Shown one piece after another: positions 2,963 to 8,714 of a stretch of 18,500 nucleotides of DNA (its first letter is position 1; each line of letters opens with the position of its first letter). Where the stretch lies: IMG/VR virus record IMGVR_UViG_2534682324_000033; one strand, given 5' to 3'. The position numbers were made by a program, and so were the translations under genes. The notes beneath the pieces are model-generated. The model was not told where the DNA came from. It searched no databases and saw only the letters and a program-made list of their open reading frames with translations. Origin of the DNA: a virus. Taxonomy: Duplodnaviria; Heunggongvirae; Uroviricota; Caudoviricetes.

Positions 2963-3275
2963 CGAATTTCTCCCGTGTAGAGGAACAGAGTTAAAAAGCC
3001 GGAAGCGGAATCAAATCACAGGATGACCATCTGCCAGTGGCTGGTCGTAAAAAAAGGCCGCGCCATGCGCAGCCGAAAATAAAGGGATAACGATGATAGT
3101 TTGAGAAAAACAGAAATAACACTTTTGTGGCAAAGCATGGTGCCGGGTGCCTCCCGGTGAATTCAGTATCAGCACCTGAATCCGCGATTACCCCATATTC
3201 CTTCTTGCTGATTGCCCCACCGCACAGGGGGATTCACCATGCAGAAGTGTTTTTAATAAACAGCAAACAAAAAAA

Positions 3276-4041: not shown

Positions 4042-4118
4042 TGGTGCGTTGTACTGGGTTCGAACCAGTGACCGATTGCTTAGAAGGCAATTGCTCTGTC
4101 CGGCTGAGCTAAAAACGC
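4042..4118 (-). tRNA. argO: tRNA-Arg (anticodon UCU)
   Basis: Hand-folded cloverleaf: acceptor GCGTTTT/ACAACGC (one mismatch), D-stem GCTC/GAGC, anticodon stem ATTGC/GCAAT with loop CTTCTAA, T-arm ACTGG-TTCGAAC-CCAGT, 3' CCA encoded. Confidence 0.8.
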
Positions 4119-4131
4119 AGAATACCGATAA

Positions 4132-4208
4132 TGGACCGCCATCGGAGACTCGAACCCCGCGAAACCAGCTTCGAAGGCTGGCGTTCTATCCCGATGAGCT
4201 AATGGCGG
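4132..4208 (-). tRNA. argN: tRNA-Arg (anticodon UCG)
   Basis: Hand-folded: acceptor CCGCCAT/ATGGCGG, anticodon stem CCAGC/GCTGG with loop CTTCGAA, T-arm CGGGG-TTCGAGT-CTCCG, CCA encoded; D-arm slightly irregular. Confidence 0.7.
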
Positions 4209-4215
4209 TATGTGA

Positions 4216-4291
4216 TGGTGGCCCTTGCTGGATTTGAACCAGCGGCCTGGCGATTATGAGTCGCTCGCTCTCACCACTGAGCTAAAGGGCC
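4216..4291 (-). tRNA. ileZ: tRNA with CAU anticodon (Ile2 lysidine-type or Met; ileZ-like)
   Basis: Hand-folded: acceptor GGCCCTT/AAGGGCC, D-stem GCTC/GAGC, anticodon loop CTCATAA, T-arm GCTGG-TTCAAAT-CCAGC, CCA encoded; first of three tRNAs downstream of the Q-like gene, the ileZ-argN-argO order of Stx-type phages. Confidence 0.75.
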
Positions 4292-4410
4292 GGGCGCAGG
4301 ATAATAACGTTACGAAATCAATGTTGCAAGCATTCAAGAATCACCTGGTTAAAAATTACCCTTGCTTCCTCCACCAGCGCATTCACCATGTCTATCCGAG
4401 ATAAGTGGCA

Positions 4411-4449
4411 CAAAAAAACCCGCTTGTGGGCGGGTTTTGTTTGCTTTTG
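4411..4449. terminator. bidirectional intrinsic terminator hairpin (candidate tR' for the minus strand)
   Basis: A7 run, stem AACCCGC (4417-4423) / GCGGGTT (4430-4436) with 6-nt loop, then TTTTGTTTGCTTTTG; gives a hairpin plus U-tract on either strand. Confidence 0.55.
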
Positions 4450-4489
4450 CCATCACGTACAAAATCGGCAAAATATCAGATTTGCATGA

Positions 4490-4518
4490 AATATATGCCT
4501 TTCAATCTACTTTTGCAA
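4490..4518 (-). promoter_or_regulatory. candidate late promoter (pR'-like) at the 3' end of the Q-like gene
   Basis: On the minus strand, -35 TTGCAA (4518-4513), 17-nt spacer, -10 TATATT (4495-4490); lies between the Q-like gene and the hairpin/tRNA cluster. Confidence 0.3.
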
Positions 4519-5191
4519 CACTTTGCTTTGAAAATGCCGCCTTTTGTTTTGAACGCGTTCTCATTACAAACAATAAAGCCTCACTATCCAGTCGGTGAAA
4601 AATGTGTTTCATTGCAACCCAGTGACGAGTAAATGTTTTGGACCAGTTTTTAGTTGTCACTCCCACCAGTAATGCCAGCTCCTTGTATTCATAACCTTCC
4701 CCACCAAAAAGTTCTGCTTTTACTGCCTGCGCCGCCAGCCAGATTAATTTTTTCAGGCGTTCCTGCGTTTTCCCTGCAATTTTTCTGGTACCGGATTGAG
4801 TATTAAATTCATTCCACGCCCACTGTGTTATCGCGATCTGATATTCCCAACAAATACTCCCGCTGTAACACCACAACAACCAGGCTTTATGATGTTCTTC
4901 AAGAGACAGAACAGCCCGCCGCCACGATGATGTCGAAAACTCAACCGGACTGACCAGAGGAATTGACGTCACCTTCGCCAGCGATTGCTTTCCCGGGATT
5001 GGTGGATTATCCCGCGTTATCATTTTTCCAGTCACTTCATCGCGGTACCGGATTTTTTTTCGCCTGTAACGCCCTGTATCGAACATGGCATTCTCCTGCC
5101 AGGCTTCAAGCTGACCTTTTGTTGCCCCACTCAAATCAGCGGTGGCGATAATGAGCTGCTCACGCACAAACTGTAAATAGTGGTTATTCAT
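4502..5191 (-). CDS. putative late-gene antiterminator (Q-like), 229 aa
   Basis: ATG at 5191-5189 overlaps the rusA stop (ATGA); position between rusA and the promoter/terminator/tRNA cluster matches Q of lambdoid phages (quuQ in K-12 Qin); no motif-level confirmation. Confidence 0.5.
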   Translation of the reverse strand: MNNHYLQFVREQLIIATADLSGATKGQLEAWQENAMFDTGRYRRKKIRYRDEVTGKMITRDNPPIPGKQSLAKVTSIPLVSPVEFSTSSWRRAVLSLEEHHKAWLLWCYSGSICWEYQIAITQWAWNEFNTQSGTRKIAGKTQERLKKLIWLAAQAVKAELFGGEGYEYKELALLVGVTTKNWSKTFTRHWVAMKHIFHRLDSEALLFVMRTRSKQKAAFSKQSVAKVD

Positions 5192-5547
5192 GCGCACTCC
5201 AGTTCTGTGATTTTTATCCCCAGCCGCTCACCAGGAACGAGCTGACCGCGCACAATATTGATTTCATCAAACTGCTCGTCGTCTATGAGAAGTCCGGCAT
5301 GCGTCAGCACATCCAGTGGTGCTTTCAGGATATTGTCCAGGTCACGACGGCGCTTATCCGGTGGCTCTGCAATAATCTTTATCACCAGCCTTCCGGACAG
5401 GTTTAATTTCAGCCGCTGCTGGCGAACAATAAGTGCCACATCCCGGCGATAACGCTCACCGGCTTTTGATACAAAATATGTGCTGCCACGACGTCGCCAG
5501 TAGGTGTTCACCGTCGGCGGGTAAGGCAAAACAAACTCTATACGCAT
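5188..5547 (-). CDS. rusA: Holliday-junction resolvase RusA
   Basis: 119-aa ORF with the RusA signature ...VLPYPPTVNTYWRRRG...PDKRRRDLDNILKAPLDVLTHAGLLIDDEQ... Confidence 0.9.
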   Translation of the reverse strand: MRIEFVLPYPPTVNTYWRRRGSTYFVSKAGERYRRDVALIVRQQRLKLNLSGRLVIKIIAEPPDKRRRDLDNILKAPLDVLTHAGLLIDDEQFDEINIVRGQLVPGERLGIKITELECA

Positions 5548-5559
5548 CAGTAACCTCTT

Positions 5560-6609
5560 TTACCCGAGCACGCCGGTTGCAAAGGCGTGATCAAGAAAAC
5601 GAAAAATTAAATCAACCTGGGAACCATGCTTTTCTTCGAACGCCAGCGGATCCGCATGAAGCTCGTTGTGATGCTCCCGACACAGCGGTAGCGTGAAAAT
5701 ATCGTGGGATTTTGTTCCCATTCCGCCCTGACCATGACCAATCAGATGATGAGGATCGTCCGCTGGCTTACCACAACACGCACACGGCTGTGTCTTTACC
5801 CAGCGTGTGTATTTCTCATTTACCCAGCGGCGACGTTTAGGTCGTTTCATGAAGGATTCCGGAGACTCCGGATCAACGGCAATGCTGACCACCGTCTTTT
5901 CCTGTGGTGGGTTCTGTTGCTGGTGGGTGTGAGGCGGTAGCGCAATATTTTTTGTGCGCTGCTTCAGTATGCTGGTGGCGGTCTGTTCTCCCGGTATGAT
6001 GTCGCTTTCACGGTATACGGAGCGGATTTTTTCCGCACGCAACCCCAGCGAACGACGTAATACCGCTTCCGGTAGCGCGTCCGCCACCTGATTGCGGACC
6101 GCCCACCAGGATAATTCAGCCAGAGATAATTCACGCTCCTGTGCGCCATTCATTGCGTGACGGATGATGTCAATCATCCAGGCGGCCAGATTCTGTTGAG
6201 CAAGTTGATCCAGTGAATCAGATGTCTGCTCCCGCAGCTGGTTGTCGCAGTGCCAGCACAACACCATCGCGCCGGTACCGTAACGGTGAATGACGGTTTC
6301 GCTGTGATGATAATCACCGTGTAGCCACTGGCAGGATTTCACGTGACGTAATAACCAGTCAGACAGTGCACCAGCGCCACCCGCAGCACGGATCACCCGC
6401 TCATCGCTGAAAAATGGCAGTAGTGATTTATCTTCCGCCAGCGGCTGGTGAACGGCAGGTACAACCCCGGACGGCAGAGCTCGCATGCTTTTTGGTTCCG
6501 GCTCCACCAGTATTCTGCCGTTATGGAATGCTGACATTGATTCACGGCCTGGCTTAACGATAACCAGACCGAGTTCCGGTACCAGAACAGGTCGAAGTAA
6601 TACCCGCAC
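5560..6609 (-). CDS. ydfU: DUF968-family prophage protein (YdfU-like) with C-terminal Cys/His HNH-like motif
   Basis: 349-aa ORF; C-terminus ...CACCGKPADDPHHLIGHGQGGMGTKSHDIFTLPLCREHHNELH...; position between rusA and hok matches ydfU of K-12 Qin; true start uncertain (tool start is GTG; ATG candidates at 6537 and 6486). Confidence 0.7.
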   Translation of the reverse strand: MRVLLRPVLVPELGLVIVKPGRESMSAFHNGRILVEPEPKSMRALPSGVVPAVHQPLAEDKSLLPFFSDERVIRAAGGAGALSDWLLRHVKSCQWLHGDYHHSETVIHRYGTGAMVLCWHCDNQLREQTSDSLDQLAQQNLAAWMIDIIRHAMNGAQERELSLAELSWWAVRNQVADALPEAVLRRSLGLRAEKIRSVYRESDIIPGEQTATSILKQRTKNIALPPHTHQQQNPPQEKTVVSIAVDPESPESFMKRPKRRRWVNEKYTRWVKTQPCACCGKPADDPHHLIGHGQGGMGTKSHDIFTLPLCREHHNELHADPLAFEEKHGSQVDLIFRFLDHAFATGVLG

Positions 6610-6610
6610 A

Positions 6611-6889
6611 TTACCTCCAGATCCGTTGCTGGAATGTGCGGGACGGACGCGGTGGCCGTTCGGAGTAAGGGAGCCTGACGGAGATTATCCAGTGACGGTA
6701 GTCGAGGCTAAGGGCTTTTTTAACCTCGCATCCGCGCCTGCGGTAACACTGAATGAGCCATTCGGCCTGTTCTTCAGTGCATGGGGGATGCTGGTACCAG
6801 TCAGATTTGAATGCGTAAAAACACCGTCCGCGCCTGCTGGCAAAGACGGCAGAATCATCAGAATTGTATAATTTGGTATCGTGCGCCAT
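6611..6889 (-). CDS. hypothetical prophage protein, 92 aa (occupies the rem position of Qin)
   Basis: ORF in the track; start taken at internal ATG 6889 because the upstream part overlaps a terminator hairpin; stop is 1 nt from the ydfU-like start. Confidence 0.4.
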   Translation of the reverse strand: MAHDTKLYNSDDSAVFASRRGRCFYAFKSDWYQHPPCTEEQAEWLIQCYRRRGCEVKKALSLDYRHWIISVRLPYSERPPRPSRTFQQRIWR

Positions 6890-6959
6890 CGGTTGTCTCT
6901 GCTGGCGCAGCAGGTGCCAGTTGTTCAGGCTGGCGTGCGAATTGTAAACCAGAATGCCA

Positions 6960-6988
6960 GGAAAAAACAAAACCCGCCGAAGCGGGTT
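6960..6988 (-). terminator. intrinsic terminator downstream of hok
   Basis: Stem AACCCGC (6971-6977) / GCGGGTT (6982-6988), loop CGAA; on the minus strand it is followed by a T-rich run (plus-strand A-run 6962-6970). Confidence 0.5.
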
Positions 6989-7056
6989 AAGTGCGGGTGC
7001 GTTGAGGATGCCTGATTCATCAGAGGTGGCGAGGGATTTCTCCCTCGCCGGGTCTC

Positions 7057-7212
7057 TTACTCCTCAGGTTCGTAAGCTGTGAAGACAGCGACCTCCGTCT
7101 GGCCGGTTCGGATTCGTACCTCGCAGAGGTCTTTCCTCGTTACCAGTGCCGTCACTATGACGGTAATACAGATGACGATCAGGGCGATTAACATCGCCTT
7201 TTGCTGCTTCAT
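7057..7212 (-). CDS. hokD: Hok-family type I toxin (HokD/RelF-like), 51 aa
   Basis: Translation MKQQKAMLIALIVICITVIVTALVTRKDLCEVRIRTGQTEVAVFTAYEPEE; AAGGAG Shine-Dalgarno 9 nt upstream of ATG 7212. Confidence 0.9.
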   Translation of the reverse strand: MKQQKAMLIALIVICITVIVTALVTRKDLCEVRIRTGQTEVAVFTAYEPEE

Positions 7213-7427
7213 AGCCTGCTTCTCCTTGCCTTTCGGCGCGTAAGAGGCTAACCTACATGTGTCTAGCATGAAATTGGCCTCAGATTAATGTTAGGCGTCT
7301 TGCAGGACGCGTAATGTTAACTGGGGCTTTTCTCTGTCTGCCTTACGGTGGCATGCCCGAGGCAGACAGCCTCAAGCACCCGCAGCAATTCTACTTAACT
7401 CTCGCTTTACCGCAAACCGTTTTTACC

Positions 7428-7449
7428 CGATATGGGAATTCCCATATCG
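7428..7449. repeat. perfect 22-bp palindrome CGATATGGGAATTCCCATATCG
   Basis: Direct reading: the sequence equals its own reverse complement over 7428-7449. Confidence 0.85.
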
Positions 7450-7457
7450 TAATGAAT

Positions 7458-7562
7458 TCAGTTCCCTAGTCGATCCATCAAAAACACAACCAGGCAGTAA
7501 ACGCCCACAACAGCAATAACAGCCAGCGCACCTTCCATTGCCAGTGAAATATCATCCGACAT
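7458..7562 (-). CDS. small hydrophobic peptide, 34 aa, with strong Shine-Dalgarno
   Basis: Hand translation MSDDISLAMEGALAVIAVVGVYCLVVFLMDRLGN; AAAGGAGGG lies about 6 nt upstream of ATG 7562; below the ORF-track cutoff. Confidence 0.35.
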   Translation of the reverse strand: MSDDISLAMEGALAVIAVVGVYCLVVFLMDRLGN

Positions 7563-7677
7563 ATTCCCTCCTTTGGTGTGAATCCCGGCGAACGTTTTTA
7601 CCCCCACCGACAAATAACATATACTAAAAAATCAATAGCTATAGCAACGCCTGTAATTGCAAAGGCTTCAGGCCAGA

Positions 7678-8262
7678 TCATTGGCGCACCTCCTGCGGCG
7701 GTTCTGGTAGCGGCATCCAGTCGGTTACATTGCGGCTCTGTGTTTCGAAAAATTCATCACCATTACGGACTACATCAAAAAACTCACCGTCTCGATATTG
7801 CGCATAAAGAACGAATGCGCCATCACATAAAATAATTACGTGCTGACCATCATCCGGCATTCGCTCACTACAGCTTATCCAATCATCCAGAGTTACCGGA
7901 TAGTTGGTTGACGTTTCCGAGATTTCCCGAAAATTATTGGTTGACGAACCCTTTTTTTCCCGAAAGTTTCCAGCCTGAAGCATGGCGGCGCTGTCTGGCG
8001 GGGCAGCATATAGCGGCACGTATATTTCCGGTTCCTTATCAGCACCGGGTTGCTCTTCCAGTGAGAATGTCTTTCCGGTAAATCGATTCATATAAAGCAC
8101 GGGCTCTGCTTCCAGCGAAGCCTGAGCAACAAGGGCCAGTGCTAAATCCAACTCAATTGCCTCGAGAGAATTTTTGAATGCTGTCTGTTTTACTGCAAAT
8201 TTCATCGCCTTTACATTTTCACTAACATGACTGATTAACTGCTCTTTTGTAAAAGTGGTCAT
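7678..8262 (-). CDS. DUF551-domain prophage protein, about 194 aa
   Basis: C-terminal ...DDWISCSERMPDDGQHVIIL...VTDWMPLPEPPQ is the DUF551 pattern; start set at ATG 8262 with AGGAG 7 nt upstream. Confidence 0.65.
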   Translation of the reverse strand: MTTFTKEQLISHVSENVKAMKFAVKQTAFKNSLEAIELDLALALVAQASLEAEPVLYMNRFTGKTFSLEEQPGADKEPEIYVPLYAAPPDSAAMLQAGNFREKKGSSTNNFREISETSTNYPVTLDDWISCSERMPDDGQHVIILCDGAFVLYAQYRDGEFFDVVRNGDEFFETQSRNVTDWMPLPEPPQEVRQ

Positions 8263-8318
8263 CTCATTCTCCTTTGATGCGAATGCCAGCGACAATTGAA
8301 GCCTGATAGCTAATTCAC

Positions 8319-8714
8319 TCACAGTACCGCCTCCTGAAAATTGCCCTGATAGAACGCCAGTACACGCAGCATAACTTCACTCTTCCGGCACTCGCCACAG
8401 ATTATGTTCTGTTGTCTGTCGTAGCGGCGTATTTCTCCGTCTGGTAACTTTCGAATCAATGTCTGGTCGGTTGCTTTCTCCGCTGCCTTACGCCATACGC
8501 GATACACCTGTTCTGATGTAAAAACACCGTATTTACCGGGCATGTATAAATCGCCACAAGCCAGTACATCCACAAGGCAACGTCTGACTGAATGCCAGCC
8601 TGCTCCCGTCGCTCTCTCCAGTTGTGATATCGTCATGCGTTCATTTTTGCGTACCAGCCCGATAATTCGGGCCTTCAGTTCTTCACGCTGTTCGTGTGTA
8701 AAAGGTTTCGCCAT
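8319..8714 (-). CDS. hypothetical prophage protein, 131 aa
   Basis: ORF with GGAGG Shine-Dalgarno 6 nt upstream of ATG 8714; family not recognised. Confidence 0.55.
   Translation of the reverse strand: MAKPFTHEQREELKARIIGLVRKNERMTISQLERATGAGWHSVRRCLVDVLACGDLYMPGKYGVFTSEQVYRVWRKAAEKATDQTLIRKLPDGEIRRYDRQQNIICGECRKSEVMLRVLAFYQGNFQEAVL

Follow-up and report, generated by a model that had tools for sequence, protein, structure and literature searches.

The hok/mok/sok (parB) module of plasmid R1 combines a Hok/Gef toxin gene, an overlapping mok frame, a cis-antisense RNA (Sok) and a leader that matches Rfam family RF01794 and holds the pairing partners tac and fbi and the alternative elements ucb and dcb (PMC9841398). 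Closed and open conformations of the R1 hok mRNA, and the role of fbi in them, have been described (PMC9841398). Among prophages, hokW-sokW of Sakai prophage Sp5 was shown experimentally to be a type I toxin-antitoxin module aiding phage release, and Hok toxicity and its Sok- and RNase III-dependent neutralisation have been demonstrated for this paralogue only; HokW of this prophage clade is only ~44% identical to R1 Hok (PMC8621323). Here, we compare these systems with the hok locus of an 18,500-nt stretch of Caudoviricetes DNA (IMG/VR record IMGVR_UViG_2534682324_000033; ‘the window’ denotes this whole stretch), focusing on the minus-strand hok gene and the 350 bp upstream of it (7213-7562). 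We consider it very probable that this interval is a composite of the hok/sok leader, the hok promoter, a dyad left over from a KilA-N gene, and a gene for a peptide of 34 amino acids (aa) that is separate from the RNA switch.

An intact type I toxin-antitoxin module of the hok/mok/sok kind is present, and positions 7207-7383 on the minus strand are its canonical 5' leader. The sok covariance model RF01794, which covers the hok 5' leader, matches over its whole length from 7381 to 7207 (minus strand) with 116.9 bits, compared with a gathering score of 59 (E = 1.7e-26). Alignment with hok/sok family leaders had been proposed as a check by the first-pass annotation, and besides this match it yielded an alignment with hokC of Escherichia coli K-12 across 7033-7393. 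The toxin is an open reading frame (ORF) of about 50 aa in the Hok/Gef family, with 81.9 bits for Pfam PF01848 (cut-off 22) and 113 bits for PHROG 251 (‘MokW-like host killing’), and a mok frame with its own Shine-Dalgarno sequence overlaps it. The elements of the module are as follows.

6966-7383, minus strand: predicted full-length hok mRNA, from a start at ~7381-7383 to a terminator hairpin (6988 to 6971) followed by a T run.
7368-7383, minus strand: tac (GCGGGUGCUUGAGG), the 5' end of the hok mRNA; its partner is fbi in the full-length fold and ucb in the truncated one.
7334-7369, minus strand: apical hairpin of the tac stem-loop, formed by a 9-bp stem pair (positions about 11-47 of RF01794, and the folds).
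7323-7329, minus strand: ucb, an anti-Shine-Dalgarno element (AAGCCCC) that pairs with the mok Shine-Dalgarno sequence in the full-length fold and with tac in the truncated fold.
7244-7281, minus strand: hairpin of the mok Shine-Dalgarno sequence (7281 to 7278) with dcb (7248 to 7244) in the truncated-mRNA fold, the region targeted by Sok (mechanism from PMC9841398).
7057-7269, minus strand: mok frame (70 aa), an in-frame N-terminal extension of hok with its ATG at 7269 and the Shine-Dalgarno sequence GAGG at 7281 to 7278; the Rfam alignment spans this region.
7057-7212, minus strand (7212 to 7057): hok coding sequence, a 51-aa Hok/Gef toxin (PF01848, PHROG 251; hokD according to PGAP).
6992-7007, minus strand: fbi (CCUCAACGCACCCGC), towards the mRNA's 3' end and just before the terminator-like hairpin and T run.
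7261-7337, plus strand: predicted Sok RNA, with a 5' single-stranded tail, a long hairpin and then GGGGCUUUUCUCU; it aligns end to end with annotated K-12 sokC.
7226-7254, plus strand: putative sok promoter (TTGCCT, 17-nt spacer, TAACCT), its hexamers read by eye at the sokC-aligned position.
7388-7416, minus strand: putative hok promoter, with TTTGCG (-35, 7416 to 7411), a 17-nt spacer and TAGAAT (-10, 7393 to 7388).

The minimum-free-energy structures predicted for the full-length and the 3'-truncated RNA gave two conformations. The 418-nt full-length hok RNA folds with -182.5 kcal/mol (z = -8.6), and in this fold GCGGGUGCUUGAGG pairs with CCUCAACGCACCCGC (tac/fbi) and GCCCCAG pairs with CUGAGGC (ucb with the mok ribosome-binding site). 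The two mRNA ends are joined by an inverted repeat with 9/9 complementary positions (6992-7000 and 7376-7384), 375 nt apart. Without the last 46 nt the fold switches: tac and ucb pair in a stem-loop that has the 9-bp hairpin as its cap, and GCCUC in dcb becomes the partner of the mok GAGG. Both predicted folds match the conformations described for R1 hok.

The 9-bp inverted repeat (CTGTCTGCC at 7334-7342, GGCAGACAG at 7360-7368) had been picked out by the first-pass annotation, and so had the Shine-Dalgarno sequence of hok itself (AAGGAG, 7227 to 7222); both are present. The repeat is the core of a longer, imperfect repeat of 21 nt (7323-7343 and 7360-7380), and its stem forms the top of the first helix in the RF01794 model. 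Of the structures suggested there to be folding elements of the hok mRNA, the 9-bp stem is borne out by the Rfam model and by the folds. The two others, a 22-bp palindrome and the 34-aa ORF, are not, because they lie upstream of the predicted hok start.

By analogy, the module most likely functions like that of plasmid R1. Pairing of 5' tac with 3' fbi would lock the full-length hok mRNA, with ucb masking the ribosome-binding site of mok. Slow trimming of the 3' end would remove fbi, after which tac would pair with ucb in the stem-loop capped by the 9-bp stem, the mok ribosome-binding site would shift into the Sok-target hairpin, and translation of mok would drive translation of hok. If the unstable antisense Sok were to bind first, it would trigger decay of the mRNA and block hok translation. 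The family membership, homology and predicted folds of the module are established by our analysis, and from them we infer its transcription start sites, expression and toxicity.

A sok-like antisense RNA within 7213-7460 had also been suggested, and alignment with K-12 sokC predicts such a plus-strand gene at about 7261-7337. Its predicted fold (-33.3 kcal/mol, z = -5.3) has the shape of a tail, a hairpin and a U run. The putative promoter scored below the threshold of the promoter scan and is proposed from its sequence at the site fixed by sokC. The module thus has a predicted cis-antisense Sok with its own putative promoter and terminator.

Compared with plasmid R1, the copy in the window is chromosomal and lies in the nin region of a prophage, and it has an extra 16-18 nt that lengthen one hairpin, corresponding to the ucb/mok Shine-Dalgarno stem and the Sok terminator stem. 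We also list as a difference from R1 that mok is in frame with hok. K-12 hokC/mokC/sokC has the same arrangement, in which mokC and hokC share their frame and stop codon. That locus is 75% identical at the nucleotide level across 7033-7393, with sokC mapping to 7261-7337; K-12 hokC is flanked by IS186, whereas the window locus is uninterrupted. The hokW-sokW systems of Sp5 and Stx2 phages belong to the same prophage hok clade as the window, and the module of Stx2 phage I is 91% identical at the nucleotide level over 417 nt. The 3' untranslated region of hok (hairpin and terminator; 6967-7048, minus strand) showed a sub-threshold match to isrK, a family of Hfq-binding small RNAs of Salmonella (27.7 bits; gathering score 50).

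Transcription of hok would start at about 7381-7383, as indicated by the position at which the Rfam model begins, by the way hokC aligns and by the TAGAAT box. The TAGAAT of the window aligns with the TATAAT box of hokC, and a homologous promoter (TTGGCG, 17 nt, TAGAAT) was flagged by the scan in phage Tritos. Relative to this start, the palindrome occupies -47 to -68. Both it and the 34-aa ORF are upstream of the start and hence outside the hok mRNA, and therefore neither can be tac, fbi or ucb.

Another claim of the first-pass annotation was that hok occurs here without relBE. No relB- or relE-sized ORF lies directly upstream of hok, where the next genes are small ORFs (34 aa and 27 aa) followed by DUF551. 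This absence is not an anomaly, however, since the homology with K-12 hokD ends at 7226, where relE replaces the leader. Window 6963-7226 shares 97% identity with hokD and its 3' region in the relB-relE-hokD locus of the K-12 Qin prophage, and a ydfU-like DUF968 gene flanks both loci. The leader is complete in the window, whereas in K-12 relBE stands in place of the mok/sok/tac leader, with the homology ending 14 nt upstream of the hok ATG. Because the hokD homology is confined to 6963-7226 and relE-relB takes the leader's position beyond it, the intact state is the one in which hok has no relBE. Sequence comparison thus identifies K-12 relBE-hokD as the derived, rearranged form, and the arrangement without relBE as the ancestral one. 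The window does have a RelB-like gene and a RelE/ParE-like gene (12417/12471-12662 and 12664-12942, plus strand); they lie beside the immunity region, ~5 kb away on the other strand, and are not linked to hok. At a sister locus in E. coli RM14723, an IS481-family element is inserted at 7221-7226 with a 6-bp duplication, and the K-12 relBE-hokD junction lies at the same point. A recurrent breakpoint at 7221-7226, at which hok becomes detached from its leader, is possible.

Upstream of the hok promoter, the window contains the following features.

7428-7449, both strands: perfect 22-bp dyad (CGATATGGGAATTCCCATATCG) with outer half-sites CGATAT and ATATCG, centred near -57 of the hok promoter.
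7458-7562, minus strand (7562 to 7458): 34-aa ORF (MSDDISLAMEGALAVIAVVGVYCLVVFLMDRLGN), acidic, with one predicted membrane span (PGAP WP_001278450.1; coding signature).
7593-7603 (distal) and 7418-7428 (proximal), minus strand: 11-bp direct repeat GGGTAAAAACG, found in the sequence and by comparison with cassette-free loci.
7598-7681, minus strand: 27-aa hydrophobic ORF (MIWPEAF...VICRWG) from the ORF list, with an ATGA overlap with the stop codon of DUF551.

We sampled hok promoters in viral contigs irrespective of their upstream sequence, which gave 172 sites with 65 distinct upstream sequences. The hok promoter was kept in every upstream type. In type A, that of the window, the 34-aa ORF is followed by the palindrome. 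Type B, found in Stx2 phage I and taken as the Sp5 type, has a 27-aa ORF (M.WPEAF...VYSICRW) that ends at the hok promoter, with its stop codon running into TAAAAACGGTTTGCGG; unlike the window, it has neither the 34-aa ORF nor the palindrome. In type C, seen for example in phages Tritos, Evi, mEp460 and HannyBb, the palindrome is absent and the 34-aa ORF is represented by a 29-aa homologue. Type D has the paa/adfO moron and then the palindrome, and type E has a different flank followed by the palindrome and ~18 extra nt. In the window, the order of 27-aa ORF, GGGTAAAAACG, 34-aa ORF with palindrome, and again GGGTAAAAACG makes the ORF and dyad look like a 175-bp cassette within 11-bp repeats. 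The 27-aa ORF (MIWPEAFAITGVAIAIDFLVYVICRWG) is a second small gene that is conserved, linked to hok and unannotated; in Stx2 phage I and similar phages, its homologues have their end right at the hok promoter.

The perfect 22-bp palindrome reported at 7428-7449 is present. About 0.004 such palindromes are expected in 18.5 kb of random sequence (18500 x 4^-11). Even with a tolerance of three mismatches it occurs only once in the window, and none of 200 shuffles produced a match. A search for a repeated operator found a single copy or half-site pair in the 18.5 kb. Among 16 distinct hok-linked contexts the dyad is the most conserved block, and one variant (L134) has a compensatory change from A:T to G:C. 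Exact searches with its 18-bp core gave 120 first viral hits, of which at least 46 were outside hok loci, and 95 hits in species-representative genomes, compared with 0 and 1 for composition-matched control palindromes. Most hits of the core are inside genes with a KilA-N domain (PF04383), where it encodes D-M-G-I-P-I-S. We had considered the non-hok copies as an independent noncoding element, and rejected this because most of them encode DMGIPIS within KilA-N genes; a minority are longer palindromes. Those longer perfect palindromes (30-46 bp), which have the core at their centre and unrelated arms, occur in Patescibacteria and viral contigs, apparently outside KilA-N genes.

A sample of KilA-N genes in viral contigs was drawn by protein pattern, independently of DNA sequence, and comprised 21 distinct genes with pairwise nucleotide identities of 62-100%. 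All 21 use the motif codons GAT ATG GG(A/G) AT(T/C) CCC ATA TCG, which form an 8+8 inverted repeat. Among the fully conserved columns, 43 have amino acids with degenerate codons, and five of these are restricted to one codon; four of the five are palindrome arms (4/6), compared with 1/37 elsewhere. Cyanophage homologues have other residues (SDIGKTISE, SDIGMTISE) and yet keep CGATATCG...CGATATCG at the same codons. Because the motif codons are fixed and the half-sites are kept in the cyanophage homologues, the dyad is under nucleotide-level constraint inside KilA-N genes, which implies selection on the DNA or RNA itself. The dyad also occurs in KilA-N-like ORFs of giant-virus contigs; this is an occurrence only, and the constraint is read from enterobacterial and cyanobacterial phages. 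DNA-level conservation of the dyad in KilA-N genes is the one unexpected result of this study and falls outside the question first asked. The hok/sok part is largely ordinary, a textbook leader that the first-pass annotation sensed correctly without identifying it. The literature on KilA-N binding sites or Roi yielded nothing useful, and no mention of the palindrome sequence was found. Roi of the HK022 nin region reportedly binds to a site inside its own gene, which is a possible precedent and not evidence.

In E. coli 7/2 (L615 3353-4774), a hok/sok module has a full KilA-N gene as its immediate upstream, divergent neighbour, ~350 nt away, and the module is 88% identical to window 7043-7393. 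The Hok ORF annotated in this strain is shorter (41 aa). Within the E. coli 7/2 KilA-N gene, 32/36 nt agree with window 7425-7460, and the order and orientation with respect to hok are the same. The relics that other hok contexts contain give FSSDMGIPISE*IQ and SPDMGIPISRLTQSVKA on translation, compared with LSSDMGIPISELIQ in KilA-N. Phage KilA-N genes thus have the identical 22-bp dyad as a coding sequence, whereas the window retains only ~36 nt with stop codons and has no KilA-N ORF. Judged from these alignments, the palindrome is most likely a ~36-nt remnant (7425-7460) of a KilA-N gene that formerly occupied this slot, as such a gene does, in the same orientation, in some E. coli prophages.

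What the remnant does at present can be read in several ways. It is a distinct possibility, though short of probable, that the palindrome is a neutral scar, a recombination-prone leftover at a mosaic junction without present function. It is collinear with the KilA-N gene beside hok, the cassette of ORF and dyad is bracketed by the direct repeat GGGTAAAAACG, its flanks change through module swapping rather than point mutation, and Sp5-type hok modules function without it. A scar does not readily explain that the 22 bp are nearly perfect across contexts with differing flanks, or that the L134 change is compensatory. In another reading, the palindrome would be a live operator of the hok promoter or of local DNA transactions, bound by a KilA-N-type or other dimeric protein, with the intragenic KilA-N copy being the same site. 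The perfect dyad with half-sites CGATAT/ATATCG near -57, the scarcity of control palindromes (0 and 1 hits versus at least 46), the fixed motif codons in the 21 KilA-N genes (4/6 versus 1/37 columns, with variation only at the two central bases) and the persistence of the outer half-sites in cyanophage homologues with differing amino acids all point this way. We nevertheless regard this reading as rather doubtful. The dyad is single in the window, its hok-linked copies in E. coli genomes have no obligatory KilA-N partner, in type E the spacing between it and the -35 box is changed by ~18 nt, and the operator is a candidate from sequence that the literature does not mention.

As an intrinsic terminator the palindrome was rejected: the bases that come after the hairpin (GGGUAAAAACGG on the minus strand, UAAUGAAUUC on the plus strand) form no U tract on either strand, and the terminator scan made no call there. 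A broader version, in which an RNA hairpin ends the upstream operon as terminator, insulator or 3'-end stabiliser and prevents 5'-extended read-through hok mRNAs, would suit a palindrome that begins 9 nt past the stop codon of the 34-aa ORF, folds into a 9-bp stem with a 4-nt loop, and always lies between the upstream gene and the hok promoter. Yet the hairpin has the same lack of a U tract and of a terminator call, it lies ~120 nt beyond the upstream stop codon in the PPompW context, many hok loci (types B and C) are without it, and its sequence is conserved inside KilA-N coding regions. We therefore consider an RNA hairpin of this kind quite unlikely.

The 34-aa hydrophobic ORF and its Shine-Dalgarno sequence AAAGGAGGG (7574 to 7566, followed by AAT and ATG) were found where the first-pass annotation had placed them, and PGAP calls the product a hypothetical protein (WP_001278450.1). 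Lack of conservation had been named as grounds for discarding the peptide. Its frame, however, is kept in three lineages and is hok-linked, and length and a strong ribosome-binding site are kept as well. A 19-residue hydrophobic core (GALAVIAVVGVYCLVVFLM) is conserved across the three lineages. Lineage 2 (MLVLKCALAIAAVMAIYCLAVVLMDRLSD) has 44-50% identity, its own AGGAGG and a GTG start, and is unannotated in the phage records inspected; the third lineage is a chimeric variant, likewise with an AGGAGG of its own. Across 48 distinct sequences of the peptide gene, variable sites are distributed over the codon positions as 13/8/19, and the ratio of nonsynonymous to synonymous polymorphism (pN/pS) is 0.2-0.4 in frame versus 0.6-12 for the two alternative frames. 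At 113/113 lineage-1 and 108/117 lineage-2 sites (221/230 sampled copies), a hok leader lies no more than ~260 nt downstream, and the nine hok-free lineage-2 copies share one other downstream sequence. This linkage and the coding signature are established; what activity the dyad or the peptide may have, we infer from such patterns.

No Pfam, PHROG or NCBIfam model matches the peptide family, which UniRef labels as uncharacterised. A phmmer search with the 34-aa peptide against 1.84 billion representatives returned only seven near-identical clusters, and no relevant literature was found for the peptide accessions or sequence. The 34-aa ORF is probably a real, narrowly distributed gene for a small membrane peptide. 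It lies 35 nt behind the preceding ORF with its ribosome-binding site exposed rather than in a long structured leader, and looks like the last cistron of the upstream early-right (nin) operon (DUF551, 27-aa ORF), separate from the hok RNA switch. An origin of the ORF as the antisense strand of a decayed KilA-N gene was rejected, as tblastn similarity was limited to the motif. The ORF is tandemly duplicated in E. coli O55:H7 TB182A (L002 2397-2608), with a 107-bp unit and a second copy that starts with TTG.

The first-pass annotation had raised the idea of a second small membrane toxin. A type I toxin with its own antisense antitoxin, forming a tandem toxin pair with hok, would agree with a small, conserved peptide that has one predicted membrane span and is encoded directly upstream of hok in most copies, and the tandem duplication in TB182A can be listed on the same side. 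That duplicate is also tolerated, though, which argues mildly against strong toxicity, and 9/117 lineage-2 copies have no hok. On the plus strand over 7458-7575, neither a promoter/terminator pair nor an RNA-family match was found, although such scans are weak tests, and the one promoter-like hit nearby on the plus strand is directed away from the ORF. No long structured leader conceals the strong ribosome-binding site of the 34-aa gene, which lies only 35 nt from the preceding ORF, and the peptide is acidic, with a net charge of about -3, unlike most type I toxins. A second toxin thus seems very unlikely. It is possible that the peptide acts with Hok at the membrane. An encompassing proposal is that the dyad CGATAT-N10-ATATCG is a functional cis element for a conserved factor, possibly KilA-N proteins, which would link a prophage toxin or peptide gene to that factor, and that the peptide (~96% hok-linked) is the membrane partner of Hok. 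We regard this proposal as unlikely.

Several observations weigh against the composite interpretation of leader, promoter, KilA-N remnant and separate peptide gene. The hok start sites, Sok and the 34-aa peptide are all predicted features. Variants of tac and fbi within the closely related prophage family are few, with mixed results and only partial compensation, and hence the covariation support comes from the Rfam model and not from these loci. Outside the palindrome, the flank of the window type matches KilA-N at 10/14 nt; the match is stronger for type E (19/26 nt, by eye). Part of the window-type flank (CTGAATTCAT) is also shared with the palindrome-free lineage-2 peptide gene, which makes its origin ambiguous. 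A matching KilA-N gene occurs in 137/5426 E. coli genomes, compared with 674 for window 7395-7680, and no O157 strain is among the KilA-N gene matches listed. These counts imply that the pairing of KilA-N genes with the hok-linked dyad is not obligatory.

The host element is a lambdoid (Qin/DicF-type) prophage of E. coli O157:H7, with the hok/mok/sok module in its nin region. Window segment 6950-7700 is 100% identical to many E. coli O157:H7 chromosomes, and NZ_AP018488 is 99.9% identical to window 4290-15698. On the minus strand, the genes are ordered DUF977, DUF551, 27-aa ORF, 34-aa ORF, hok, a 92-aa hypothetical gene, DUF968 (YdfU-like), RusA and Q. Further Rfam matches above the gathering score in the window were the small RNA STnc100 (3099-3271, minus strand; 100.8 bits), DicF (14227-14278, plus strand; 76.7 bits) and three tRNA genes (4045-4291, minus strand).

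Hence, the apparently odd structured region upstream of hok is a standard hok/sok RNA switch, which this prophage retains in its ancestral form. The 34-aa gene and the 27-aa gene next to it add to the many small membrane proteins of prophages in enterohaemorrhagic E. coli that are still unstudied, and the tight linkage of the two genes to hok makes both small peptides candidates for roles in lysis timing or modulation of Hok. The constraint on the dyad points to a binding or recombination site that has gone unrecognised, in a viral gene family that is very widespread and has poorly defined targets on DNA, and this side result may matter more than the hok finding itself.

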